A stretch of 48,410 nucleotides of DNA from a virus. Lineage: Duplodnaviria > Heunggongvirae > Uroviricota > Caudoviricetes. Under the pieces are notes generated by a model that was given only the letters and a program-made list of their open reading frames with translations, did no database searches and was not told the origin of the DNA. Position numbers and translations under genes: made by a program. Positions 541 through 40,725 of this stretch are shown piece by piece; the first letter of the stretch is position 1, and every line of letters begins with the position of its first letter. The stretch covers positions 1 through 48,410 of the IMG/VR virus record IMGVR_UViG_2531839667_000010; one strand, given 5' to 3'.

Positions 541-1578
541 TTAACGCTTATCCGCCACCAGTTTGAGCGCGTGTTCCAGCACATTAATGTCTGCACCCGC
601 TTTATGGGCATTTTCACTTAAATAACGCCGCCACTGCCGCGCGCCAGGAATACCCTGGAACAAGCCCAGCATATGCCGGGTAATATGGCCGAGATACGTA
701 CCCTGGCTGAGTTCACGCTCAATGTACGGATACATGGCGCGCACTACCGCCACCGGATCAGCATCAGTATCCGAGGAACCAAAAATCTCTCGGTCTACCG
801 CCGCCAGAATCCCCGGATTCTGATACGCTTCGCGCCCGACCATCACGCCATCCATATGTTGCAAATGCGCTTTAGCCTCTTCCAGCGACTTGATGCCACC
901 GTTAATCGACATCGTCAGATGCGGAAAGTCACGCTTCAGTTGATACACACGCGGATAATCGAGAGGCGGGATCTCACGGTTTTCTTTCGGACTTAACCCA
1001 GAAAGCCAGGCTTTACGTGCGTGGATGATGAACATCTCACACTCACCTTTGCCGGAAACGGTGTTGATGAAATCGCAGAGAAATTCATAGCTGTCCTGAT
1101 CATCGATGCCAATACGCGTCTTCACCGTCACCGGAATCGACACCACATCGCGCATCGCTTTCACGCAGTCGGCAACCAGCTGCGCATTACCCATCAGACA
1201 CGCACCAAACATGCCGTTCTGCACCCGGTCAGACGGGCAGCCGACATTCAGGTTGATCTCATCGTATCCACGCGCTTCTGCCAGCTTCGCACACTGTGCC
1301 AGCGCCGCCGGATCACTACCCCCGAGTTGCAACGCTACCGGATGTTCTTCTTCACTGTACGCCAGGTAATCACCTTTACCGTGAATAATCGCCCCTGTGG
1401 TCACCATTTCGGTATACAGCAACGTATTGCGGGAAAGCAGACGCAAGAAATAGCGGCAATGTCTGTCCGTCCAGTCGAGCATAGGAGCAATGCTAAACCG
1501 AGAATTCCAGTAAACACCAGTTTTTTCAGGCATCACGCTGGTTTGATTAATTTTTTGTGTTTCATGATTATCGTGCAT
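541..1578 (-). CDS. dusA: tRNA-dihydrouridine synthase A
   Basis: 345-aa ORF with the Dus/TIM-barrel flavoenzyme pattern ([19 protein letters not shown]); near-identical to my recollection of E. coli DusA except the first ~30 residues. Confidence 0.95.
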
Positions 1579-1666
1579 TTTTGAACATTTCAGGCTATTT
1601 TTCTCGCGTTAGGTTCCCGCACAGGTTCCCACGTTTTATGGGAACCCGAAATAACGAGGTCGTGTA

Positions 1667-2764
1667 ATGGCGTACTATAACATAGAGAAACGACTAAAAT
1701 CCGATGGCACACCACGCTATCGCTGTAATGTGATTATCAAAGAAAAAGGTGTTATCACTTACAGGGAAAGCAAAACATTCCCTAAACATGCTCATGCCAA
1801 AACATGGGGCACACAGAAAGTGATGGAATTAGATCTATATGGCATTCCATCATCAAATGCAGTTGACGGACTTACAGTCCGTGACTTACTACACAAATAT
1901 TTAAATGACCCAAATGCCGGAGGTAAAGCAGGCCGTACTAAAAGATATGTGCTGGAACTGCTTATGGATAGTGACATCTCCGCGATCAAACTATCTGAAC
2001 TGACAGAAAATGACGTAATTGAACATTGCAGGCTAAGAAACAACGCTGGTGCAGGTCCAGCTACAGTTAGCCACGATGTTAGTTATCTTGGCAGTGTTCT
2101 GGATGCTGCCAAACCTGTATATGGAATTAATTACACATCAAACCCAGCAAAAGCCGCTCGTCCATATCTACTTAAACTTGGTTTAATTGGTAAATCAAAC
2201 CGTCGTAATCGTAGACCAGCATCTGATGAACTGGACATGCTCATTGAAGGCCTTCAACAACGATCTACTCATAAATGCTCAAAAATTCCGTTCGTTGATA
2301 TCCTCAAATTTTCTGTGTGGTCCTGTATGCGAATCGGAGAAGTATGCCGGTTACGATGGGAAGATCTCGACCAGGAACAAAAATCTATACTCGTAAGAGA
2401 CAGGAAAGATCCACGCAAAAAGGAAGGCAACCACATGAAAGTAGCCTTGCTTGGGGAAGCCTGGGATATCGTCCAACGACAGCCCCAAAAATCGGAATTC
2501 ATTTTTCCATATAACAGCACTTCTGTTACTGCGGGATTTCAGAGGGTAAGAAGCAAATTAGGTATTAAGGATCTGCGATACCATGATTTGCGTAGAGAAG
2601 GGGCAAGTCGCTTATTTGAGGCTGGTTTTAGTATTGAGGAAGTAGCCCAGGTTACAGGGCATCGTTCATTAAACGTGCTATGGCAGGTATATACCGAACT
2701 GTATCCAAAATCTTTACATAATCGTTTTGAAGAGCTCCAAAGGAGCAGAAATAAGATCTCTTGA
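1667..2764 (+). CDS. int: Tyrosine-type phage integrase (dusA-associated arrangement)
   Basis: 365 aa; C-terminal catalytic region with LRYHDLRREGASRL (H-x-x-R) and GHRSLNVLWQVYTEL (Tyr nucleophile); divergent from and immediately beside the dusA 5' end. Confidence 0.9.
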   Translation: MAYYNIEKRLKSDGTPRYRCNVIIKEKGVITYRESKTFPKHAHAKTWGTQKVMELDLYGIPSSNAVDGLTVRDLLHKYLNDPNAGGKAGRTKRYVLELLMDSDISAIKLSELTENDVIEHCRLRNNAGAGPATVSHDVSYLGSVLDAAKPVYGINYTSNPAKAARPYLLKLGLIGKSNRRNRRPASDELDMLIEGLQQRSTHKCSKIPFVDILKFSVWSCMRIGEVCRLRWEDLDQEQKSILVRDRKDPRKKEGNHMKVALLGEAWDIVQRQPQKSEFIFPYNSTSVTAGFQRVRSKLGIKDLRYHDLRREGASRLFEAGFSIEEVAQVTGHRSLNVLWQVYTELYPKSLHNRFEELQRSRNKIS

Positions 2765-2812
2765 CACTGTTTATCCATACAGTTAAAAATAATACTGTAT
2801 ACAAACACAGTA
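2761..2812 (+). promoter_or_regulatory. SOS-regulated promoter with two LexA boxes
   Basis: TTGACA at 2761-2766 with TAAAAT about 17 nt downstream; two CTGT-N8-ACAG motifs (ctgtttatccatacag 2767-2782, ctgtatacaaacacag 2795-2810); AGAGGGA Shine-Dalgarno before the ATG at 2826. Confidence 0.6.
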
Positions 2813-2825
2813 TAGAGGGACTTTT

Positions 2826-3044
2826 ATGCGTATTGAAATCTGCATAGCCAAAGAAAAAATGACTAAAATGCCAACCGGTGCTGTGGATGCGTTAAAGGAA
2901 GAATTAACCCGACGCATCAGTAAACGTTATGACGATGTAGAGGTGATCGTAAAAGCCACCAGCAACGATGGCCTTTCTGTTACACGCACCGCAGATAAGG
3001 ATTCTGCAAAAACTTTTGGGGTATTCGGGATAAGTAGTTGTTGA
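2826..3044 (+). pseudogene. dinI: DinI-like protein, 5' portion, interrupted by an IS after codon 64
   Basis: [31 protein letters not shown] resembles the DinI N-terminus as I recall it; the frame runs into IS sequence at 3019 and ends with unrelated residues. Confidence 0.7.
3011..3018. repeat. Target-site duplication (left copy), AACTTTTG
   Basis: Identical 8-mer directly flanks the IS at 5679-5686. Confidence 0.65.
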
Positions 3045-3095
3045 AAACCTTTTGATAAGATCTGCAATTCATTTTTATAGACGGTGAAAGTTGTT

Positions 3096-3123
3096 GTTGA
3101 CCTCCTGATCGGATTCCTATACT
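3096..3123 (+). promoter_or_regulatory. Putative sigma-70 promoter inside the IS
   Basis: GTTGAC(C) then TATACT; spacer 15-16 nt, so sub-optimal. About 250 nt upstream of the ORF6N gene. Confidence 0.3.
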
Positions 3124-3369
3124 GTTTGTCTCACGAGGCGTAGAAACCTCTCCAAAAGCGGTCCGAACCAACCCCGATAGTGTTGGATTTTTTATGCCTG
3201 TTATTCAGTGATTGCACTGTATGCGGTCACACCCCGATCAATGTCGGGAGGGCGACGAATACAACACCCAGCGATGGGGAATAAGTTCGCGGTATCTTTT
3301 GGGCCGTTTCTAACCTCCCGACACCCACTTATGTGGATTTCCGTAGAAAGAAACCAAAAGAGGTCAGTC

Positions 3370-4262
3370 ATGACTAACCATTCTCCAGTAGAAAGCCTGC
3401 CAGTTGTTACCTATAACAGCCTCCCGGTGATCACCACCGAACTGCTGGCAAAACTCTACAATACCGAACCCAAATACATTCAAACCAACACGGCGCGTAA
3501 TGAATCACGTTTCGTTGCTGGAAAGCACTTCTTTAAACTGGAAGGCACTGAATAAAAGACTTTAAGAACAGACCATCTTCAAGAGGGTTAGTTGGTTCTC
3601 GCGCTCGTAGCCTTGTTCTCTGGACGGAGCGCGGTGCCGCTCGCCACGCCAAAATGCTCGAAACCGATCAGGCGTGGGAAGTGTTCGAAAAGCTGGAAGA
3701 CTTCTATTTTAGCCAGAAGGAAAAGGCCGAGCAGATTCGTAAGAATCGCCAGTGTACAGCTACCCAGCTTATCCCGCTGCGCCAAACGGCAGAACGGTTA
3801 ATCACGACAGGCCTCGGCAAAATCTATCCCGACATATGGAAGCTGGTTCATCAGCGCTTCGATGTTGAGCATATCCACCAGTTGCAGCCTGAGCAGGTCG
3901 GTGAAGCCATCGAGTATCTGAACGTGCTGGAAGGTGAGTACCTGGGGCGCGAGACGCTTCCGGCAACCCCATCAGTGCATTTCACCAACGAGGAGCTTTG
4001 CGCTCTCTGCTGGGTATGGAATGCCGCCGAATACATGCGGGAGAAGATAGAGCTGGCCTATCCCGCAATGAAAACTCTCAAGTCTGAATACGCACCGAGC
4101 TTCTACTCAATGGCATTTGAGTATCAGCGAACACTGGAAGCCGGTAGAAAGGTTCTCGAACGGGAAACAAAACACATCGTTCCGCATCCTCACAGCGTGT
4201 CAGATGAAAACTGGCGGCGAGTCCTGCCTCGTCTGCGCCAAAATAGCTTACCTCGCGGATAA
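3370..4262 (+). pseudogene. ORF6N-domain (antirepressor-type) protein gene with a frameshift near 3550
   Basis: N-terminal frame (ATG 3370, GAGG Shine-Dalgarno) ends FFKLEGTE at TAA 3553-3555; a second frame continues ...SLVLWTERGAARHAKMLETDQAWEVFEKLEDFYF to 4262, matching my recollection of the ORF6N family; consistent with loss of one T at ctgaa-t-aaaag. Confidence 0.55.
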
Positions 4263-4276
4263 TAAGGGACAAAACG

Positions 4277-5599
4277 ATGAGCGAGATTGCACCAACGAGC
4301 CTGTTACACCCTCTGAAAGCTACCGTTCTGGATTTTCAGGAGGATGAGCACGACTATCAGTTCAAGGTTGAATACCCGGAGCCGACCTGCTGCCATGCCT
4401 GCGGTGCAGTGTCTGACATCATCCGCTTTAACAAAAAGCTGGTGAAGTACCGGGATGTTCCCATGCACGGGAAGCGCGTCACGCTCTGGGTCGTAACACG
4501 CCGTTATCAGTGCAAATCATGCAAAGGCACATTCACCCCGGCCATCCCCGAGATGGCCGAAGCCCACCGCATGACAAAGCGCTGCTATCAGTACATCATT
4601 AAACGTGCGCTGACCGGCACTAACGCCAGCGTCGCGCAAGATGTTGGCTTTGATGAGTCCGTCACCCGTGGGGTCATCAAGTCCTACTGCGAGCAAAAGG
4701 CGAAGACCTATAAGCCTGTGCTGCCGCGAGTGCTGGGCATTGATGAGCTGTACCTGAACAAAACCTTCCGCTGTGTCCTGACCAACATCGAGCAGGGAAC
4801 CATTATTGACATACTGGAATCCCGGCAAAGTAACGTCATCTACAACCGTCTGGCGCATATGGAAGGCCGTGAGAACGTGCAGATCGTCTGTCAGGATATG
4901 TGGAAGCCATACCGTGACGTTGCCAGCCAGCTATTCCCTAAAGCCAGCATCGTCGTTGACCGCTTCCATATCCAGCGCATGGCTAACGAGGCGATGGAAA
5001 TGCTGCGTAAGTCGCTCAAAAAGGATCTGACAGTACACCACCGACGGCAGCTTAAAGGCGACCGTAAGATGATGTTGATGCGTAAGCGTGACCTTAACCC
5101 TATGCAGCAGATGATTATCGAAACGTGGCTGGATCACTATCCTGAGTTGGGTCTGGCCTATCAGCTCAAGGAAGAGTTCTTTGATATCTGGCTGGCACAG
5201 ACTGAACCTGAGGCCAGAATGCGCTATCAGAACTGGCTGGCAAAGATACCCGAGCATCATAAAAAGCACTGGAAGCCGCTGATAACATCCATGACGAACT
5301 GGGAGAAAGAGATATTCGCCTACTTCGGCCCGGCCCAGCGGAAGACCAACGCCTTTACGGAATCCATCAACCGCAAGATGCGCGATCTGAACCGTGATTC
5401 GCGCGGAATGTCCTTTGAGATGTTCAGGGCTAAAACACTGTTCACTCTCAAGCATAAGTTCAGCAAGCCTAAACCAGTGAAAGAATCACCGTTCACGGTT
5501 GGCTATGTCACCGCTGGTTCGTGGGATCTGGATGATGAAATCCGGGACGATTACGGCGTATCTATCGACGCTATTCTGGAATCCAAAATCGGCGAATAA
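4277..5599 (+). CDS. ISL3-family transposase
   Basis: 440 aa; N-terminal zinc-finger/HTH pattern (CCHACG ... [10 protein letters not shown]) typical of ISL3 transposases; sits between ISL3-like terminal repeats with an 8-bp duplication. Confidence 0.75.
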
Positions 5600-9600: not shown

Positions 9601-9630
9601 TTAACCCCTCAAAAGAGGGGTTAATATTTT
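9601..9630. terminator. Bidirectional rho-independent terminator between cor and J
   Basis: Perfect 10-bp stem ttaacccctc/gaggggttaa, loop aaaa, T/A runs on both sides. Confidence 0.55.
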
Positions 9631-12600
9631 AACCTGTGAATGAACCAGATCCGTGTGATACTATGACAGTAGGCGAATAAATGGACGCGCCCCTGTTATT
9701 TTGAGCGGACACTTTAATACGTACTGTTACGTTTGGACCTGTTACAACAGCAGAATGCATAATAAGTCTCTCCACGTCTTGCACAGATGAACCACTCTCA
9801 TTGCCGTTAATATTGATTAGTCCTGCACCATTACCTTTAACGTTTGCTATAACACAGACGTGTCTTGCGTGCCCAGAACTGGATGAATCCTTATAAGTTA
9901 TTACCTTTTCTAAAAGGCCGTCACTAGACCGACTAACGTCAGTTCCGGTGTGCATATTTGCAATGTCCCCGATAAAACTTTGGGCTTCCACAGTCCCTTT
10001 GAATTTACCGCTTGTTGCTTGTATCTCACCAGTAAATCTACCGCCACTAGCATATACTACACCTCTGACGGTCACATTGTTGAATTCAGCATCTCCAGCT
10101 TTATTCAACTTCCAACCAGCAGAACCAGCTGCATAGTTGTTGGACTGGATATAGTTGCCGATTTTTGCGTTCTCAATGGTGCCGTCCTGGATGAAGCTGG
10201 CCCGGATGAATGTCTGTCCATTCTGGATCACAAACGGCAAAGCCACGCTATTTCCGGCTGCCGTGGTGACGGCGAAGCGATCAGCCAGGAAGATAACCTG
10301 CGACTGCATGCCGGATGGCGTATTCTCCACGCCGATACCCATCCCCGCGGCGTAATACTGACCGTTGCTGGAAACGCCAACCTTGATGTTGTACATCGCG
10401 CTGAGGTCGCCATTAACGTTTGCTATCGCCTGAGCGTTAGTGGTGATGGCGGAGGTATGCCCGTTCACGGTCGCCGTAATGCCGTTTATCTGCGTGGCCG
10501 TAGCCTGCTGATAGTCGGAGAACGTCTGATTCAGGCTGTTTATGGATGCCTTGTTGCCGTTGACATCCGTCTGCAGGCTCAGCAGAGAACGCGCCGTTGC
10601 CTCCTTCTCGTTAACGATTACCTCATCAATACGATCCAGCTGCGCACTGTTCCCTGCGACCGAAGCTGACAACGATTTACGCGTAGCCACTTGTGCCAGC
10701 CCGTTCTGGATAATTGCGATAGCAGAGTTCTTCACCCCGCCCGTCATGCCGTCCATAGACACGCTGATGCTGTCGATTCGCTGGCCCAGTGCGGTATCAG
10801 CAGTCGCAACAGTCTGCTCAAGATCTGAGAGAGAAGACGACACATCACCGACCGTGCTAGAAAGCTCATTAACGCTGGTCTGAACCTGCCCGATGTCCTG
10901 CGCGTTTTTTGCGATTTCCTGCGCCTGGAGTTCAAGTTCATCGTTGGCCTGTTTGATGTCGTCAGCCATGCCAGCAATTTTTTCATTGCTGTCCACAGCG
11001 TTCTCGATCAGGTCTTTGAACGTCTCAGACCCTTTGATGTCTTCAAGGATCACATCTGTGATGTCAGAAACATCGATACTGGCCTGCCCACGAACCCAGC
11101 TGGTATAACCTGACTCGTTACCGCTGCGGTCAACCAGCTGCGCGCGGTACCAGAAAATCTGCCCCGCTTTAAGGCCCATCTGCTGATATTTGCGCTGCGG
11201 GTAAGGCACATCGGCCAGCAGCATGGCATCGTCTTCAGTACCGGTCAGGCTGTACTGAATTTCCGTCTTCAGCGTGTCGTCGGTATTCGCCTGGAATCCC
11301 CAGTTCAGCTCGATACCGAACACCACGTTTTCAGAGGCGATAAAGCCAACCGGCTTCGGTGGATTGCCCACTTTACCCGTCAGCGTTTTCTCTTCTGAAT
11401 AGCCCCATCCGGATGAAATTTCTGCGGCATTGATTGCGCGCACCCGCACCAGGTAGCGCCCGGCATAAATCCCCGGGACGTCGAATGACGTGGTGGAGGT
11501 GCGCGGCACGTTAACCCAGTTCCCGTCGTTGCGGCGCCATTGCGCTTCATAGGCGATAGCGTTCTGCGCCTGGTCCCAGCTCACGCGCATTGTTTCGACG
11601 CTGATATTTTGCTGAACCACGGAAAACGAGCTGATCACGATATTCGCAGGCGGCGACTGGTTGCCCGGCGGGATCACGCTCACCGGCCGTTGGTCAATGA
11701 TGGCACCGGTATCGATACGCGCATATTTATCCGGATCGTGCAAAGCGCCAGCAATCGAATACGTTCCGTCATTATTATCCGTAACGCTGATAACGCGATA
11801 TTGCTGCGCGTAAAGCTCTTCAGACTCGACAATCCACACCGATTCCACTGCAGGTGTTTCGCTGTATGCCGTTGTCACAGTGACGGCCCGCCCGTTTACG
11901 CTCTGTATCGTCCTGCTCTGCGATGCGCCGGACGGAAGGTTAACCATCAGACGGCTTCCGGGAGCGGCTGCCGAATCACGATCAAGCGTGATAACGCGAC
12001 CGTTAACCGCGCTGATGCGCCCTCCCATCACTTTTCCGGAAAGCAGCTCATCGGCAACCGCGATGATATAACCAGGCTGTGGGATCTTACCGTCAAGACC
12101 AACATCGAACGACACGATGCGATCCTTGTTATTGGTCAGGATACCCCAACGTCCTTTGCGGTTTGCCTCTGACTGCCGGGTACAACCAATGGCTGTCATT
12201 TCGAGCTGATTTGTGCCAAAGCGAGCAACGAGATCCTGCTCAAATACAGGCTCCATCGCATCCGCGTAGGCATTACCCGGATCGGACCAGGAAACCAGTG
12301 CCGTGGTATAGCGGGTTTTGGTGGTGCTGCCCGAATAGGTAAAGCGCCCATTAACCACGTTTGCACGCGTGTAGCTGTAATCCACATCGCGGGGCATATC
12401 CGCCAGCGCAACGATTTGATCGCCACCCCAGTACGTCATGCCCCGGAATATCGCCGCAAAATCACGTAACACGGTATAGGCGTCATTCCTCTCCTGCACG
12501 TACACGTTACAGGTATAGCGAGGCTCAGTGCCGCTACCGCCTTTACCATCAGGAACCGGCTGATCGCAATATTGCGCGACCTGATAAAGCGTCCATTTAT

Positions 12601-13519
12601 CAATATTGGCCGCCGTCAGGCGATTGCCCAGCCCAAAGCGGTCGCTCACCACCAGATCGTAAAAAATCCAGGCTGGATTATCCGTCCACGCCCACTTAAA
12701 CGCCCCTGTCCATGTGCCGCTGTAGGTGCGGGTCTCCGGGTCATACGTATCCGGAACGCGGATTACACGCCCTCGCGGTTCGCAGGATATTTGCGGGATA
12801 GAGCCGTTAAACTGGCTTGAGTCGAATTCGATGTACAGCAGCGCGGTATTTGGATAACGCAGTTTGGCGTCAATAACCTCTGTGTAGCTCTGCAGCGTCA
12901 TCGTGTCGCCAATTTTCGCGCTGTTGGCATCCGCCGTAAGCTTACGCAGGCGCACCGTCCATGTACTGCCTGCCTGTGGTAAATCGATACGATGGCTGCG
13001 TTCGTAGCCGGAAGTTGTCTTGCCGGTTACGCTGGTATTAAGTACCGTCTGCCAGGTGCCGCCATCGGTCTGCAGATCAATAGCGTAGTTAATTGAATAG
13101 CCAACCAGATCGCCATCATCCTCCTGTTTAAAAAGCGATGGCCACTTGAGGCGCAGGCGAACGGCTGACAGTTGCGTGTTGGTAAAGGTATGTGTCCAGC
13201 CGGTGGTGCTTGACACTTCGGTGCCCACGCTGATTTCATTTTCTGTGCCGGGGATACCCTGAATATATTTTTGTGCCTGAGTCCCCGGACGAAATTCCCA
13301 CGCCACGCCACTGAAGTTTTGCGATCCGTCTGCATTCTCCAGTGGCGTGCCATCGAGATAGATATCCTTCGCCGTCAACTGCCCTGCAAATTCGCCCTCT
13401 CCCAGTGCAACAAGAATTTTGGCTTTCGCTACGGACTGGAGATCGTCTGGTTGTTCAGTCGGGGTGCGTGAACTGGAGCTGCCGCCCTTGCGGCCTCTAA
13501 TCGGAGTAGATGTAGCCAT
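9629..13519 (-). CDS. J: Tail tip / host-specificity protein J
   Basis: 1296 aa; recalled lambda J motifs (YCDQPVPDG...TEPRYTCNVY); position after tail assembly protein I. Confidence 0.9.
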   Translation of the reverse strand: MATSTPIRGRKGGSSSSRTPTEQPDDLQSVAKAKILVALGEGEFAGQLTAKDIYLDGTPLENADGSQNFSGVAWEFRPGTQAQKYIQGIPGTENEISVGTEVSSTTGWTHTFTNTQLSAVRLRLKWPSLFKQEDDGDLVGYSINYAIDLQTDGGTWQTVLNTSVTGKTTSGYERSHRIDLPQAGSTWTVRLRKLTADANSAKIGDTMTLQSYTEVIDAKLRYPNTALLYIEFDSSQFNGSIPQISCEPRGRVIRVPDTYDPETRTYSGTWTGAFKWAWTDNPAWIFYDLVVSDRFGLGNRLTAANIDKWTLYQVAQYCDQPVPDGKGGSGTEPRYTCNVYVQERNDAYTVLRDFAAIFRGMTYWGGDQIVALADMPRDVDYSYTRANVVNGRFTYSGSTTKTRYTTALVSWSDPGNAYADAMEPVFEQDLVARFGTNQLEMTAIGCTRQSEANRKGRWGILTNNKDRIVSFDVGLDGKIPQPGYIIAVADELLSGKVMGGRISAVNGRVITLDRDSAAAPGSRLMVNLPSGASQSRTIQSVNGRAVTVTTAYSETPAVESVWIVESEELYAQQYRVISVTDNNDGTYSIAGALHDPDKYARIDTGAIIDQRPVSVIPPGNQSPPANIVISSFSVVQQNISVETMRVSWDQAQNAIAYEAQWRRNDGNWVNVPRTSTTSFDVPGIYAGRYLVRVRAINAAEISSGWGYSEEKTLTGKVGNPPKPVGFIASENVVFGIELNWGFQANTDDTLKTEIQYSLTGTEDDAMLLADVPYPQRKYQQMGLKAGQIFWYRAQLVDRSGNESGYTSWVRGQASIDVSDITDVILEDIKGSETFKDLIENAVDSNEKIAGMADDIKQANDELELQAQEIAKNAQDIGQVQTSVNELSSTVGDVSSSLSDLEQTVATADTALGQRIDSISVSMDGMTGGVKNSAIAIIQNGLAQVATRKSLSASVAGNSAQLDRIDEVIVNEKEATARSLLSLQTDVNGNKASINSLNQTFSDYQQATATQINGITATVNGHTSAITTNAQAIANVNGDLSAMYNIKVGVSSNGQYYAAGMGIGVENTPSGMQSQVIFLADRFAVTTAAGNSVALPFVIQNGQTFIRASFIQDGTIENAKIGNYIQSNNYAAGSAGWKLNKAGDAEFNNVTVRGVVYASGGRFTGEIQATSGKFKGTVEAQSFIGDIANMHTGTDVSRSSDGLLEKVITYKDSSSSGHARHVCVIANVKGNGAGLININGNESGSSVQDVERLIMHSAVVTGPNVTVRIKVSAQNNRGASIYSPTVIVSHGSGSFTG

Positions 13520-28796: not shown

Positions 28797-28959
28797 GGCT
28801 TACTCCTGGCAAAAAACAGAGAAAGGAAACAATCAACGGTAAACTTCCGTTTTCCTTGCTCAGCATTTCCTTTCTGGAGAGAGGACGTTTTTAACAAAAA
28901 CAATGAGTAAACAAGAAGAAGAACGGAAATGGCATAAACCAGAAAATTTTCATAAATAG

Positions 28960-28992
28960 CGAGAATCTGCGCGGACGCCGCCCCGTAACAGG
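28960..28992 (-). other. cos site (cosN region) of the lambda-like packaging system
   Basis: Minus strand reads ...TTACGGGGCGGCGTCCGCGCAGATTCTCGCTATTTATGAAAATTTTC..., closely matching my recollection of the lambda cohesive end GGGCGGCGACCT and following sequence; about 170 bp upstream of Nu1. Confidence 0.6.
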
Positions 28993-29044
28993 CCGGATCG
29001 CCGGAAAGGACCCGCAAACGATATTAATTATCATTTGCATATCA

Positions 29045-29773
29045 TCATCGACGGCACTGCCACCAGATAACACCACCGGGTAAACATTCCATCATGATGG
29101 CCGTGCGGACATAGGAAGCCAGTTCATCCATCGCTTTCTTGTCTGCTGCCACTTGCTTTGCGACATCCAGCGCTGCACATTCAGCAGCGTTTTTCAGCAC
29201 GTTTTCAAGCAACGCTTCAATGTTGGTATCAACACCAGGTTTAACTTCGAACTTATCGGCACTGACGGTTACCTTGTTCTGCGCTGGCTCATCACGCTGG
29301 ATACCAAGGCTGATGTTGTAGATATTGGTCACCGACTGAGGTGTTTCGAGTGCCGCTGCGTGAATAGCACCATTTGCAATAGTGGCGTCCTTGATGAATG
29401 GCACTCCATTGCGAATAGGCTCGAAGGAGACGGTGTCACGAATACGCTGGTCCAGCTCGTCGATTGCCTTCTGTGCAACTGAGGTATTAATCTCAACGCC
29501 AAGCGTCATCGAAGCGCAATATTGCTGCTTACCAAAACGCGTATTGACCAGGTGTTCAATGGCAAATTTCTGCCCTTCTGATGTCAGAAAGGTAAAGTGA
29601 TTTTCTTTCTGGTATTCAGTTGCTGTGTGTCTGGTTTCAGCAAAACCCAGCTCGCGCAATTCGGCTGTACCAGATTTAGAAGGCAGGTCACCAGACAGCA
29701 ACGCGCCGCGGAAAAACAGCGCATAGAGCACGTCAGTAGCAGCGCCAGATAGCGTAATAATTTTCTCAGCCAT
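29045..29773 (-). CDS. Hypothetical protein (cos-proximal accessory gene)
   Basis: 242-aa ORF with no family I recognise; start 4 nt after the stop of the upstream 61-aa ORF. Confidence 0.55.
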   Translation of the reverse strand: MAEKIITLSGAATDVLYALFFRGALLSGDLPSKSGTAELRELGFAETRHTATEYQKENHFTFLTSEGQKFAIEHLVNTRFGKQQYCASMTLGVEINTSVAQKAIDELDQRIRDTVSFEPIRNGVPFIKDATIANGAIHAAALETPQSVTNIYNISLGIQRDEPAQNKVTVSADKFEVKPGVDTNIEALLENVLKNAAECAALDVAKQVAADKKAMDELASYVRTAIMMECLPGGVIWWQCRR

Positions 29774-29776
29774 TAT

Positions 29777-29962
29777 TCACTCCTTTTTAAGCCCGGCTAA
29801 CTGGTTGAAGGTAGAAGGACGACCACTGCGTAAGACATGTTTATCATTACCGAGTACACCGATAACAATGCGTGCTTTTCCCTTTTTATCGCTGATGAGC
29901 ATCGTTCCGTCATTACGAATAAACGCCCTCAACCCTGACTTTGGTTTTTTGCCGAATTGCAT
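29777..29962 (-). CDS. Hypothetical small basic protein
   Basis: 61 aa, lysine/arginine rich; tightly linked upstream of the 242-aa ORF. Confidence 0.45.
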   Translation of the reverse strand: MQFGKKPKSGLRAFIRNDGTMLISDKKGKARIVIGVLGNDKHVLRSGRPSTFNQLAGLKKE

Positions 29963-30119
29963 AGCTATTTCCTTTTAGACGTGAGCCTGTCGCACGGCAA
30001 AGCCGCCGAAAGTTTACGGTTTGCCCAGGCTCATAGCTGAAAGACTTTCTTTGATGTGCGCGTGCGATGCGCATAAAAAAGCCCCGCTTACGCGAGGCCG
30101 GACTGTCAGAGGGGGTTAC

Positions 30120-30329
30120 TTACATGCCATAGACGAAATCGTCACTATCGAGTCGGTGAGAGCCGTAGTGAGCTTCATAATCCGCACCGAGAGTAGCTGC
30201 TTTTGTTTCAGCAACGTCTTTGGTGGCGTAAACACCGGCTAAATGCCAGGGGGCATTACGAACAACACCCCACCCTTTAACCCATCCTTTATTATCAAGA
30301 TCGGGCTTTAAACCTTCCGCAACAAACAT
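30120..30329 (-). CDS. Hypothetical protein
   Basis: 69 aa from the internal ATG with a strong AAGGAG Shine-Dalgarno 7 nt upstream; the listed ORF extends to 30380. Confidence 0.5.
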   Translation of the reverse strand: MFVAEGLKPDLDNKGWVKGWGVVRNAPWHLAGVYATKDVAETKAATLGADYEAHYGSHRLDSDDFVYGM

Positions 30330-30388
30330 AGTTATCTCCTTTGGGTACCCGGAGATCATGCTATTCAATTGCGGAAACAAAACAAATA

Positions 30389-30634
30389 TTATTCAACAAG
30401 CTCTGCGGTAATCGTTAACCATGTCAAATCAGGGCGGTTATGCGTAACGTTAATAGCATCATCACTGGCGTTAACATCATACATTTTCGAGAATGGATGC
30501 GTCGCCTTACCAGATAGTGAGTCTTCAGCCAGCACACGTCTATTCTGAATTACCTGGAAATTAACTGTCGCGCCTTGAATAACTTCATCACAGTATTCCT
30601 CAAGGTGAGCAATCGTAACTTTTAACTTTTTCAT
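30389..30634 (-). CDS. Hypothetical protein
   Basis: About 81 aa from MKKLKV (GGGGG Shine-Dalgarno-like); the listed ORF extends to 30667. Confidence 0.45.
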   Translation of the reverse strand: MKKLKVTIAHLEEYCDEVIQGATVNFQVIQNRRVLAEDSLSGKATHPFSKMYDVNASDDAINVTHNRPDLTWLTITAELVE

Positions 30635-30698
30635 CATTTCCCCCATGCATTGCATTATCGCAGACACTCAGTGAATGCCTGCTGTAGTGCCTGACAGA

Positions 30699-30929
30699 TT
30701 AAGAGAAGGAGACGCCTAAATTAACCAGTACGGCTCTTTTTTCCTCAATACGACGGTCAAGCTCAGCCACAGCATGTGGGCGTATAGCATCCAAAAAGGC
30801 ATTATCCTGATAGGTAGATTGGATTGTTACCCCAAGCCCTGCACCACTCTCCAGAATGTTTTTCTGTCGCTGTAGTTCTTTTATCTCGTTATTGAGGTAA
30901 TACGCTTCACTTAGGTTTTCTGCGTTCAT
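30699..30929 (-). CDS. Hypothetical protein, translationally coupled to Rz
   Basis: 76 aa; start overlaps the Rz stop. Confidence 0.5.
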
Positions 30930-31450
30930 CGTGTAACCCTGTTGTTATTCGACTGTCTCACCGAGTCGTAAATCCGCTCACACGTCATTCCGGCGCGGTA
31001 GCGTTCGTCAGCGATTCCAGCATAACGTTTAGCTTCTGCTGCAATATCTCCGAGCATGTCGGCGAGCATTCTGGCGTCGGCTCCGGCTGTTTTGCTTCGG
31101 ACGGCAGCGGCAAGATCTGCGGTGTGCTTTGCGGCGTCCAGGCTGGTAGCGAGTTTTTTGGCTTGTTGCTGCAGCTTGCTAACAGTGGCAGACAGGCCAG
31201 CAGCAGTGGCAGCAGATTTAGCGGCTTGTGCTTGTGCATCTTTTACAGCCTCATCACGGGCAATAATTCGCCCTTGTTCAATCATGCGGGCGGCGGTCTG
31301 CGCGTTCGCTGTTTGCGATGATTCCGCGCTGTCACGTTCCGCCCACTTTTTTTCCCAACCTCGGTTACTCCAGACGCTTCCGGCAATAAACGCACAGCCC
31401 ACCAGCAGAAACACAGCAAAGGTTTTACTCACTGGTCTATCCCCCAGCAC
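30926..31450 (-). CDS. Rz: Rz-type i-spanin
   Basis: N-terminal transmembrane segment then Ala/Gln-rich coiled coil; contains the embedded Rz1 ORF. Confidence 0.75.
30985..31239 (-). CDS. Rz1: Rz1-type o-spanin lipoprotein, embedded in Rz in another frame
   Basis: Signal peptide with lipobox LASC followed by a proline-rich sequence; lies wholly inside Rz. Confidence 0.6.
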
Positions 31451-32250: not shown

Positions 32251-33303
32251 TTATTCCCCTGCCAGCTGCCTTACCTCACTTACCGTCTGGTTGAAACGTT
32301 CCTCTTCCAGTTCTACGCCGATAGCCTGGCGGCCCAGTTCAATGGCTGCTTTAACAGTTGATCCCGAGCCCATAAAGAAATCAGCTACCACATCGCCGGG
32401 CCTGCTGCTGGCGTTGATGATTTGCCGCAACATATCAGCGGGCTTTTCGCACGGGTGTTTGCCTGGATAGAACTGGACGGGTTTATGTGTCCAGACGTCT
32501 GTATAGGGCACGGCTACTGTCACAGAGAAATGCCGCCGAAGAGATTTGTACTCTTCCAGCAGATCAAGGTATTTCCGGTTCAACGAATGCCATGTGGCCA
32601 CCAGCTGGTGATGCGGTGCTTTGAGTTCAGAGGCGCGGTGCTTCTCAATGGCGATCTGAGTGAACAATTCCTGCAGCTTTTCGTAATCCTGCTCGTTTGG
32701 TAGTTGCCACTGACTGGTACCGAACCAGTGAGACGCCATATTTTTCTTTCCGGTAGCGTCAGCTATTTGCCTGGACGTGACCCCCAGTTCGGCTCGTGCA
32801 TCACGAAAGTAGGTGATTAACGGAGCCATGACGTGCTGTTTGACCTCGTTGCTTTTCTCAGCAAATCCGTCGCTTTTCGGCTTATATGGCCCCTGATAAT
32901 GCTCAGCGAAAAGGATGCGTTCCGTCGCGGGGAAGTAAGAGCGCAGGCTTTCTTTATTACAACCGTTCCAACGCCCTGATGGCTTCGCCCAGATAATGTG
33001 GTTCATGACGTTGAAGCGTTCACGCATCATGATCTCAATATCAGATGCCAGGCGATGCCCACAGAACAGGTAAAGGCTTCCGGCAGGTTTCAACACCCGC
33101 CAGAACTGGGCCAGACAGAGGTCCAGCCACTTAAGGTAATCTTCGTCCCCTTTCCACTGATTGTCCCAACCGTTAGGTTTCACCTTGAAGTAAGGCGGAT
33201 CGGTAACAATCAGGTCAATGGAATCATCAGGCAGGGACTGAATAAAATGCAGGCAATCAGCGTTGATTAAATCAACACTGTTTATTTTTACAGTATTTTT
33301 CAT
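32251..33303 (-). CDS. DNA methyltransferase (N6-adenine/N4-cytosine family, DPPY motif), orphan
   Basis: 350 aa with IVTDPPYF catalytic motif; no adjacent restriction endonuclease gene seen. Confidence 0.85.
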   Translation of the reverse strand: MKNTVKINSVDLINADCLHFIQSLPDDSIDLIVTDPPYFKVKPNGWDNQWKGDEDYLKWLDLCLAQFWRVLKPAGSLYLFCGHRLASDIEIMMRERFNVMNHIIWAKPSGRWNGCNKESLRSYFPATERILFAEHYQGPYKPKSDGFAEKSNEVKQHVMAPLITYFRDARAELGVTSRQIADATGKKNMASHWFGTSQWQLPNEQDYEKLQELFTQIAIEKHRASELKAPHHQLVATWHSLNRKYLDLLEEYKSLRRHFSVTVAVPYTDVWTHKPVQFYPGKHPCEKPADMLRQIINASSRPGDVVADFFMGSGSTVKAAIELGRQAIGVELEEERFNQTVSEVRQLAGE

Positions 33304-39568: not shown

Positions 39569-40725
39569 TTGCGCCCCCTTACCTCTGAAGAGTTCAGCGA
39601 CGAATGAATAAGACGGGCAAGAAATGCCGCATCGTTAATTCGGTCATACAGACTTACAGCCAGCGGTGATTCAGCTTTTTCCAGCATGGGATAAAGCTGC
39701 TGCAACCAGACCTGATGAATTGATGAAATGTAGGAATAGAGAACGCTGGCGTTATGTGCAACGTCGCTCAGTACAGAGGGATTTGAAAGCTGTTTCTCCA
39801 TCTGGTTAAAGGCATTGATGTATGCCTCTTTGAACCGGGCAGCACGTTTACCAGTGAAGCCCATAGCAAGGAACGCGAAGCCATCGCGGGTTATTTGATA
39901 GCAAGGTAGTTTGCGAGTACCGCCGTTGGGCTGGCGTACCAAAATTGATGTCTCCGCAAAATTGCGGGCACAAAACTCTGGAGAACAATCCAAAATGCGA
40001 ATCTTTTTCAGAACATCGTCATGACGTTTAGAGAAGAAGTCAGCAACAGCCAAAGAAGATGTAACAGCCTGACCATCAACGATGGCAATTTCAGGTTGAG
40101 AGAGGGTTGGGACAGTAGCCATGATGGCAGCCTCCGTATGCAATGGATAACTTCCACCACCGGAAACGCCAATTTCGCTGGTGGTGAACTGAGCAGGGTT
40201 GGCGTAACCGGCGCATACGGAAACCGGCGCACCTTTCGGTGCCCCCACCCAGCCCACCATAATTTGGGTATAGCTGAGTTGTAGCAACAAAAAAGACGCT
40301 AACGCGCCAATTGTCGCCGTATGCAATTCCAGGACGCCAATCCCGGCACCCGCTTTATAAGGTGCCTGAACAGTGTAACGTCCCGGAATGGCAGAATCAA
40401 TGTGCTGGTGGTCCTTCACACTCAACAAAATCACGCCTGAATTTCCACAAAGGACTAAAGCACTCATGCGGGTAGTCTTTGCGAAGATAGATAACGCGCT
40501 GTGTTTCTGGCTCCCAACGAATAACATGGACATAAAGCCCTCTTCCGTCACGAAACCAGCGGTTAAGTTCCTGCACAACTCGCCCCCCACAGTCAGGTAA
40601 AGTTCTCTGTGGTTACTTACAGCCAGGTGATTTGGTAATCTGCATTCATGCCGTAACAACAGGTGTTCAGCGACGCTGACCACCAGCTGTTGCGACAAAC
40701 GGTTATTTGCCGTTAAACTGTTCAT
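39565..40725 (-). CDS. Rha-domain phage regulatory protein (start uncertain)
   Basis: Rha-type domain (...IVDGQAVTSSLAVADFFSKRHDDVLKKI...) in residues about 205-300. The longest ORF starts at 40725, coupled to the upstream stop; an internal ATG at 40121-40123 with a GGAGG Shine-Dalgarno would give a 186-aa Rha protein. Confidence 0.55.
   Translation of the reverse strand: MNSLTANNRLSQQLVVSVAEHLLLRHECRLPNHLAVSNHRELYLTVGGELCRNLTAGFVTEEGFMSMLFVGSQKHSALSIFAKTTRMSALVLCGNSGVILLSVKDHQHIDSAIPGRYTVQAPYKAGAGIGVLELHTATIGALASFLLLQLSYTQIMVGWVGAPKGAPVSVCAGYANPAQFTTSEIGVSGGGSYPLHTEAAIMATVPTLSQPEIAIVDGQAVTSSLAVADFFSKRHDDVLKKIRILDCSPEFCARNFAETSILVRQPNGGTRKLPCYQITRDGFAFLAMGFTGKRAARFKEAYINAFNQMEKQLSNPSVLSDVAHNASVLYSYISSIHQVWLQQLYPMLEKAESPLAVSLYDRINDAAFLARLIHSSLNSSEVRGRK

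Follow-up and report, generated by a model that had tools for sequence, protein, structure and literature searches.

The window analysed here, meaning the whole stretch of 48,410 nucleotides (nt) of viral record IMGVR_UViG_2531839667_000010, comes from a lambdoid phage that carries its late genes on the minus strand, and this work concerns the part of it between the spanin gene Rz and the cohesive-end site cos (29045-30929). Coordinates below refer to the minus strand of the window unless another strand or locus is given. According to Pfam matches, the genes on that strand run in the order Q, a DNA methyltransferase (Mtase), holin, lysozyme, spanin, a stretch of five open reading frames (ORFs), cos, Nu1 and gpA. 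The original prediction, made from the letters alone, had described this stretch as a cluster of five uncharacterised accessory genes. Both the five minus-strand ORFs and the surrounding genes were found as it gave them, with products of 76, 81/82, 69, 61 and 242 amino acids (aa) from sensible starts. A recognisable ribosome-binding sequence precedes every ORF but the first, ORF A, and full-length homologues of all five are known in other phages or prophages, indicating that they are more than chance ORFs. Their G+C content is 0.41-0.50, against 0.49-0.55 in the neighbouring genes. Two further features had been missed: a structured leader RNA of about 105 nt ahead of the 61-aa ORF and a Fur-box-like palindrome beside cosQ. 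The comparisons described below show the stretch to be an accessory, variable slot that holds known but uncharacterised families.

ORF A (30929-30699; 76 aa, acidic, isoelectric point (pI) 5.0) starts in an ATGA that overlaps the Rz stop codon, as had been proposed, and is a member of phrog_5415, a family of unknown function. Its full-length homologues, with 35-87% identity, come from Citrobacter, Escherichia, Klebsiella, Salmonella and Erwinia phages, and in E. coli MEI4O1-23 and the viral loci L043, L046 and L047 the gene likewise follows Rz at a distance of a few bases. A 76-aa 'putative Fur-regulated protein' of phi80 was considered as a homologue of ORF A and discarded, as the two have no similarity. 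ORF B (30634-30389; 81 aa, pI 5.2) partially matches phrog_2571; its open frame (30667-30389) would give 92 aa from a GTG, and the ATG ATG at 30637/30634 behind GGGGAA gives 82/81 aa. It is 63% identical to mEp237_060 (81 aa) and 90% identical to the copy in L040, with ORF C behind it each time. ORF C itself (30329-30120; pI 5.4) reads 69 aa from the ATG at 30329 behind AAGGAG, within an open frame (30380-30120) of 86 aa from a TTG; it is a member of phrog_4280, 87% identical to mEp237_061 and 38-41% identical to Pseudomonas phage proteins. A likeness of ORF C to a SPOR domain, noticed by eye (DamX, E 0.25), was dropped for want of Pfam support at E<=1. The B-C pair is closed by a hairpin, GGCCTCGC-GTAA-GCGGGGCT followed by T6 (30099-30074), which had been called weak; with a stem of 8 base pairs (6 of them G-C) and a GTAA tetraloop it is instead a strong textbook intrinsic terminator. 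The same terminator stands ahead of the leader in mEp237 and E. coli YPE10, while HK639 has a different one, annotated as a terminator, in that place. After the terminator come the leader RNA (30073-29966), the 61-aa ORF (29962-29777), whose basic product (pI 11.1) is unlike the other four, all acidic, and the 242-aa ORF (29773-29045; pI 5.3). That none of the products matches a recognised family had to be revised for four of the five, which fall into PHROG families, the 242-aa protein being the phi80 gp66/N15 gp59 protein called 'Fur-regulated protein' in RefSeq. The earlier statement holds in the sense that searches of Pfam, NCBIfam and PADLOC gave none of the five a characterised function, and PDB sequence searches gave no meaningful match either.

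To place the stretch among its relatives, phage records, enterobacterial prophages and 80 viral loci from IMG/VR were compared. Coverage of the 2.2 kb concerned stayed below 80% in every phage record and every complete E. coli genome, and gene content differs among phages with the same cos/Nu1 region or the same Rz, as expected of the accessory slot first proposed. In HK225 the slot is empty: the cos flank is the same up to the 242-aa stop codon, and only about 100 nt separate Rz from that flank. In the Citrobacter prophages L010-L014, Rz is followed by just the leader, a 57-aa gene and a 242/229-aa gene. mEp237 and E. coli ECONIH4 have B and C with the terminator, and behind these the leader with a gp59-like gene. 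In E. coli MEI4O1-23, other genes stand between Rz-A and the leader, which precedes the 242-aa gene. In E. coli YPE10 a gene for a Clp-fold protease replaces A-C, and in phi80 the leader and gp66 follow rha and two other ORFs. Among the 80 viral loci, L043, L046 and L047 have Rz-A and lack B, C and the 61-aa gene. The closest arrangement found, L040 (IMGVR_UViG_2848626167_000005, 1379-5010), is without ORF A and reads Rz, B (90%), C (99%), leader, a 58-aa ORF (93%), a 238-aa homologue (96%) and Nu1 (94%). A different packaging module adjoins about half of the 80 loci. Because the combinations differ between related phages, the units of the slot are three, namely A, B-C with the terminator, and the leader (with or without the 61-aa gene) with the 242-aa gene. 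Thus, of the first description, the observation and the reading of the region as a variable accessory slot stand, whereas the treatment of the five genes as one unit, which assort as at least three modules, and of the last two as a functional pair (discussed below) do not.

The product of the last gene is the best documented of the five. It matches phrog_17079 over residues 1-242 (E 1.7e-165), has 679 database homologues, and is 92% identical to phi80 PHI80_66 (ORF x171.28), which is annotated as 'similar to N15 gp59'; literature searches on phi80 and N15 found no functional test of the gp59 family and no study of its regulation by Fur. Its layout comprises a winged helix (residues 1-85), a segment resembling the gpJ fibre (about 80-175), and a long helix with a short C-terminal helix that ends in PGGxIW (182-241). 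Residues 1-85 are more than 80% identical across loci, usually more than 90%, and the rest is a patchwork with several alternative C-termini. AlphaFold2, given an alignment of 50%-identity representatives (a shallow alignment of close homologues gave a predicted local distance difference test score, pLDDT, of 36), returned a pLDDT of about 97 for residues 10-76, as helix, helix, beta-hairpin and helix, and above 90 for the helix at 182-230. In the PDB, the top 50 Foldseek matches of the N-domain were all winged helix-turn-helix proteins of the MarR family, with probabilities of 0.66-1.00 and near 1 for most. In a viral structure library, Foldseek matched it to stand-alone uncharacterised phage proteins of 75-106 aa, with E-values down to 8.5e-7 and template modelling (TM) scores, normalised to the target, of 0.66-0.88. 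The N-domain is therefore confidently predicted to be a winged helix of MarR-like fold. No Pfam or NCBIfam model matched it, those for MarR and PadR included, and it occurs in only 94 clusters (at 50% identity) among 1.84 billion representatives; the only Pfam matches among the domains fused to it in these clusters were PF09327 and, in a giant protein, a single hit that is probably spurious.

PF09327 (Phage_Tail_Tip) is the domain to which the middle part of the protein points. In the 242-aa protein itself it scores 20.8 bits (E 3.4e-4), short of the gathering threshold of 22, and it is found above threshold (29.5-51 bits) in 224-aa relatives and in leader-linked proteins of HK639, AsXd-1 and SP016. 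The window has its own gpJ (9629-13519; 1296 aa) with FNIII-A_GpJ, Phage-tail_3 and a full PF09327 at residues 1024-1161, and hhalign aligned the 242-aa protein with residues 1021-1136 of it (E 1e-4, probability 57%); the motifs QYxAxMxxGVE, NGxxFIxxAxIxxGxI and YNIxxG are common to both. Homology of the middle part to the PF09327 region of gpJ is thus likely, for a fragment only. These results define an odd architecture: a conserved winged-helix head is joined to a mosaic tail in which a fragment of the gpJ fibre precedes a coiled coil. One 177-aa homologue (P0120, 'Fur-regulated protein, partial'), 93% identical to the window protein, carries the NCBI label Streptococcus salivarius, most likely because the assembly is contaminated with enterobacterial phage DNA.

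The same architecture could be read as that of a virion part, a small trimeric accessory fibre or whisker that would dock by its N-domain and vary its mosaic distal part with the host. A conserved N-domain followed by a patchwork with alternative C-termini is typical of fibre genes, and the relationship to the gpJ tail-tip fibre, the position of the gene in the late operon, the location of the HK639 relative inside a block of tail genes, and a long C-terminal helix compatible with a coiled coil all agree with it. However, a MarR-like winged helix is no known fibre-attachment fold, and the HK639, AsXd-1 and SP016 relatives are entirely without the N-domain that would have to do the docking. Moreover, close relatives such as HK225 do without the gene, which hence is not essential for particle formation, and its leader and position are those common to regulators rather than structural genes. 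We consider a role in the virion unlikely, although among the alternatives it fares best.

The leader lies between the terminator and the 61-aa ORF. A covariance model built for it found a single copy in the window (29947-30077, 143 bits). Ahead of gp59-like genes, identity of the leader is 84-99% in most of about 70 loci, falling to 74-78% in a subgroup that bears an insertion. The leader begins at a sharp 5' boundary, the sequences flanking it on either side are unrelated, and in most relatives it directly abuts the gp59-like start codon. Divergent copies stand before phi80 rha (L001 2363-2509, minus strand) and in L034, L035, L042, L046, L067, L079, L086, L093 and L096-L175. A wide scan of IMG/VR with a degenerate pattern hit at least 120 contigs, and nearly all of the 80 loci taken from it were confirmed by the leader model at 35-150 bits, always in one orientation and ending in the Shine-Dalgarno (SD) sequence and start codon of the next gene. 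By Pfam, that gene encodes Rha in 30 of 68 cases, KilA-N in 9 and a TerB-like protein in 8, the others being P22_AR_N, ANT/KilAC, T5orf172/MUG113 and HNH_3 proteins, proteins with a gp59-like C-terminus and small unknowns. The leader is therefore a portable 5' untranslated cassette that is widespread among phages. Rfam 15 gave no match to it even at E<=10, the region 28800-31000 returning only two chance hits outside the leader, and literature searches turned up no described rha leader, so that it is apparently an undescribed structured RNA. Identity with the enterohaemorrhagic E. coli prophage anti-small RNAs AsxR or AgvB was considered and rejected, since AsxR and AgvB are located elsewhere, at the pR' moron site 3' of stx, and no Rfam hit was obtained. 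A 53-aa ORF over the leader (30074-29913) was likewise judged spurious, because the region is conserved as RNA ahead of unrelated start codons.

RNAalifold folded the leader into a 5' hairpin (P0, GCGC-N7-GCGC) and a long hairpin. The latter consists of GUGAGCCUG/CAGGCUCAC, a 3'-side internal loop GUGCGA, GGCAAA/UUUGCC and CCG/CGG, and it is closed by an anti-SD, UCUUUCAG, pairing with CU-AAAAGG, in which the SD lies. In 71 sequences, compensatory changes were seen in 13 of 29 pairs, and 97% of the cells were paired, compared with 39-47% when the partners were slid; none of 500 shuffles reached the observed values. The SD helix UCUUU/AAAGG was paired in 99% of cases, with variation of U/C against G. 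In partition-function folds the SD was predicted to be paired (probability of being unpaired 0.01-0.26) in 8 of the 11 instances in which it was correctly located. The predicted structure is thus supported by covariation, and the fold suggests that the leader probably sequesters the SD and gates translation of the next gene.

Could the element act as DNA instead, as an operator, an inverted repeat bound by a protein or a module boundary that promotes recombination? It does mark the exact junction at which cargo genes are swapped and does contain a long inverted repeat. In addition, a paper that cites the original work (PMC4936722) places rha in the late operon and reports its regulation by IHF, a protein that binds DNA; this is compatible with control at the leader but does not demonstrate it. 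By contrast, the frequent G-U pairs (at three pairs, UG 37 with CG 31, GU 12, and UG 53) fit the sense strand only, because each would become an A-C mismatch if the opposite strand, or a cruciform of the DNA, were to pair in this way. The compensatory changes, moreover, keep the leader paired while its sequence changes, and its orientation is constant, with the SD and start codon of the next gene at its end. A DNA element is accordingly rather improbable, and we retain the reading of the leader as RNA.

Downstream of the 242-aa gene lies the cos flank. The 12-nt cohesive end of cosN, GGGCGGCGTCCG (28983-28972), was located by alignment with the annotated sticky end of phi80; it is also found in HK225 and E. 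coli YPE10, and is two positions off the GGGCGGCGACCT of phi80 and the Citrobacter prophage L010. A GGGTCCT heptamer (29013-29007), which from lambda we take to be the cosQ sequence, is invariant in seven aligned cos flanks and falls inside the phi80 feature annotated 'cosQ; aka R4 region'. Between it and the 242-aa gene, 7 nt past the stop codon, is the Fur-box-like palindrome GCAAATGATAATTAATATC (29038-29020), with 15 of 19 consensus matches. It is the only site in the window with 4 mismatches or fewer (0.09 expected by chance), and a palindrome with 2-4 mismatches is conserved at the corresponding place in each of phi80, mEp237 and mEp213, as well as in E. coli and Citrobacter prophages. 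The aligned flank of HK225 retains the box although it has no gp59-like gene, and the box is missing where a gene of the 242-aa type adjoins a different packaging module (L013). We therefore assign this putative Fur box to the cosQ flank and not to the 242-aa gene. Through this site Fur might act at cos as a host factor; alternatively, the site might serve as a roadblock or as an element of a promoter.

These observations bear on the name of the family. RefSeq and UniRef call it 'Fur-regulated protein', the phi80 receptor is FhuA, whose own expression is regulated by Fur, and a good, conserved box adjoins the gene, so that the gene might be a lysogenic-conversion gene under Fur, switched on in the prophage when iron is scarce. 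However, the box lies downstream of the gene and not at a promoter; a Fur box upstream of the gene was sought and discarded, as no site with 5 mismatches or fewer occurs in the leader or upstream of the 242-aa gene, and the only good site is that in the cosQ flank. In mEp213 and mEp237, too, the box is retained with a different upstream sequence. A 2026 study found phi80 production to be independent of iron availability, in work that did not address the 242-aa gene (PMC13449921). Regulation by Fur is thus quite improbable. The name most likely goes back to adjacency to the Fur box in an old Fur-titration clone, given that notes in the phi80 record read 'ORF x171.28' and 'ORF x171.8', and its presence on many named homologues in databases is no evidence that the gene is so regulated.

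The 61-aa ORF uses the SD of the leader. Its stop codon is separated from the ATG of the 242-aa gene by 3 nt (TGA ATA ATG), not by the 4 nt first counted, and an AAGGAG lies inside its end. Homologues were found in only 19 protein clusters, with Citrobacter or Salmonella as the named sources. About 10 of the 80 viral loci have the gene, as do the Citrobacter prophages, and in every case it lies between the SD of the leader and the larger (229/242-aa) gene. Its frame is kept in eight distinct alleles, with a one-codon in-frame indel and a predominance of third-position changes, and the ratio of nonsynonymous to synonymous substitution rates (dN/dS) is mostly 0.2-0.7, with one pair at 1.18; it looks like a real gene under weak constraint. 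A likeness to CsrA, noticed by eye, was dropped, as Pfam gave no support at E<=1. An N-terminal MAE in the large protein co-occurs with the small ORF in the window (29765-29773) and in L015, L028, L029, L031, L040, L044, L045, L062 and L069 (MTE in L058), and copies in viral loci without the small ORF start with MSN, MGH, MGQ, MGK or MSE. This correlation suggests a single ancestral insertion that was later spread by recombination, and the 61-aa gene appears to be an occasional insert between the leader and the 242-aa gene. The further proposal that the two genes form a toxin-antitoxin, superinfection-exclusion or anti-defence pair draws on their 3-nt spacing with the downstream SD inside the upstream ORF, on the opposite charges of their products and on the movement of the pair as a block between phages with different packaging modules (L013 compared with L010), but it is very improbable, because the larger partner stands alone behind the leader in most phages (phi80, mEp237, mEp213, the E. 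coli prophages examined and about 70 of the 80 viral loci), its 679 hits far outnumber the 19 clusters of the small one, whose dN/dS reaches about 0.7 or more, no promoter of the pair's own was found, and no toxin, antitoxin or defence model matched in Pfam, NCBIfam or PADLOC (the best being CcdA at E 0.037, with 14 bits where the cutoff is 100; in PADLOC-DB 2.0 no family at E<=1 for any of the five proteins).

The genes on either side of the slot were placed by Pfam. Upstream lie the Q antiterminator (34704-33910), the N6/N4 DNA methylase (33303-32251), a P21-type holin (32180-31965), a lysozyme (31968-31429) and the DUF2514 i-spanin Rz (31450-30926), within whose gene a lipoprotein ORF is embedded (31239-30985); past cos follow Nu1 (28796-28251) and gpA (28276-26354). 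A strong terminator (32244-32227) stands directly after the methyltransferase gene (32251-33303), between Q and the holin, so that gene and terminator occupy the other classic cargo site, downstream of pR', and the Citrobacter prophages L010, L012 and L014 have the same arrangement. Elsewhere in the window, Rfam models matched at gathering level at two adjacent sites, C4 antisense RNA at 40177-40264 (80.7 bits) and isrK at 40289-40365 (61.2 bits), which suggests an immI-like antirepressor control module of the P1/P7 type in another part of the phage. In a part with integrase-sized ORFs, sRNA-Xcc1 was matched on the plus strand (3243-3330, 62.6 bits, gathering threshold 53).

How the slot might be expressed was considered from its signals. 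The promoter scan of the cluster gave a single promoter-like match, inside ORF A, where chance alone would give 3.8, and the 242-aa gene is not followed by a terminator. As no convincing promoter of its own was found, transcription of the slot most likely comes from pR'. Q-modified RNA polymerase starting there would read through the terminators and across cos into Nu1/A, and would thereby transcribe all five genes. The first module would be ORF A, translationally coupled to Rz, and the second ORF B and ORF C, closed by the strong intrinsic terminator. In the third, made up of the leader of about 105 nt, the optional 61-aa ORF and the 242-aa gene, expression would be set at translation. Here the anti-SD (UCUUU) would pair with the SD (AAAGG) at the base of the long hairpin and hold back translation. 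Because the SD is paired in the consensus fold, the structure would have to be opened or cut before the first ORF is translated, candidates being RNase III at the internal loop or a host or phage factor. The 242-aa ORF would then be translated by coupling, via the AAGGAG inside the end of the 61-aa ORF. Since it occupies the same position behind the leader as antirepressor and regulator cassettes, its product may belong to the class of Rha, KilA-N and antirepressor cassettes and be a dispensable, late-made, oligomeric accessory factor that binds DNA or protein. Taken together, we favour the reading that the stretch is a late-operon cargo site with three passenger modules, the third gated by its leader and encoding a 242-aa accessory binding factor, and give it a probability of roughly 0.55.

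Several results weigh against this reading, first among them those on the window's own leader. In that copy the SD has a probability of 0.51 of being unpaired, no different from shuffles, and a competing AGCUAU/AUAGCU pairing covers the spacer before the start codon; the single-sequence fold energy of the leader is unremarkable (z = -1.0). The leader alignments in which pairs were counted had been fitted to the model, and the wide scan demanded exact CTTTCAG, GAGCC and GGCTCA, which inflates their invariance. Because the SD helix hardly varies, the covariation is evidence chiefly for the hairpin. At about 20 loci a gp59-like gene has no leader, and the slot may have a weak or non-sigma-70 promoter of its own. 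For the 242-aa protein, the AlphaFold2 confidence is low over residues 120-175, and the E-values of the Foldseek matches in the PDB are only 5e-3 to 6e-2. The N-domain, with a pI of 6.3, is near-neutral and not basic, so that binding of DNA by this predicted winged helix is plausible and at the same time uncertain.

A wider reading can be built on the same observations, and we put it forward tentatively, as possible but unlikely. The leader would represent a new class of phage riboregulator, a trans-controlled switch or processing site that RNase III, a host factor such as IHF or Hfq, a phage protein or temperature would open. Translation of a whole range of exchangeable cassettes in the late operon (Rha, KilA-N, ANT, P22_AR_N, T5orf172, HNH, TerB and gp59-like) would be gated by it, and the chimeras of winged helix and fibre would be an unrecognised effector class of that regulon; separately, Fur would be a host factor for the termination of packaging at cos. 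Whatever the fate of that proposal, the five proteins themselves are ordinary uncharacterised phage cargo, and it is the leader RNA and the cos-linked Fur box that are worth following up. The leader gives a testable handle on how potent regulators of the Rha, KilA-N and antirepressor types are kept silent in lambdoid phages, and it may bear on the old observation that expression of rha depends on IHF.

Among known systems, the slot resembles that of lambda, which carries bor and neighbouring genes as accessory genes between Rz and cos. In both, the slot is at the end of the late operon, its genes have a lower G+C content, and they are present or absent among collinear phages: HK225 is empty, and phi80, mEp237, the E. 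coli and Citrobacter prophages and the viral loci differ in content while otherwise being collinear relatives. bor itself has no sequence relation to the genes found here. Of the classic anatomy of a moron, promoter, gene and terminator, a strong terminator follows ORF C, and no own promoter was detected. The phi80 counterpart of the 242-aa gene, PHI80_66, is likewise the last gene before cosQ and has the same leader upstream, and the differences from it and from N15 gp59 are the 61-aa ORF inserted here and an N-terminus of MAE rather than MGH or MSN. The predicted fold of the N-domain is that of MarR/PadR winged-helix proteins, whereas the 242-aa protein is no member of these sequence families, and their dimerisation helices are replaced by the fibre-like segment and the coiled coil. 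With gpJ, conversely, it has only the one segment in common, as the hub, FN3 and receptor-binding parts are absent and a winged-helix head stands instead.

For the leader, translational control by 5' RNA structure or antisense RNA is familiar from lambda N, whose leader has an RNase III site, from sar-ant of P22 and from c4-icd/ant of P1. The leader described here has no sequence or model similarity to C4 or other Rfam families, although C4 occurs elsewhere in the window. What it appears to have in common with the lambda N, P22 and P1 systems is its placement and design: a structured leader right before the SD of genes for potent regulators, with the SD itself held in a helix.

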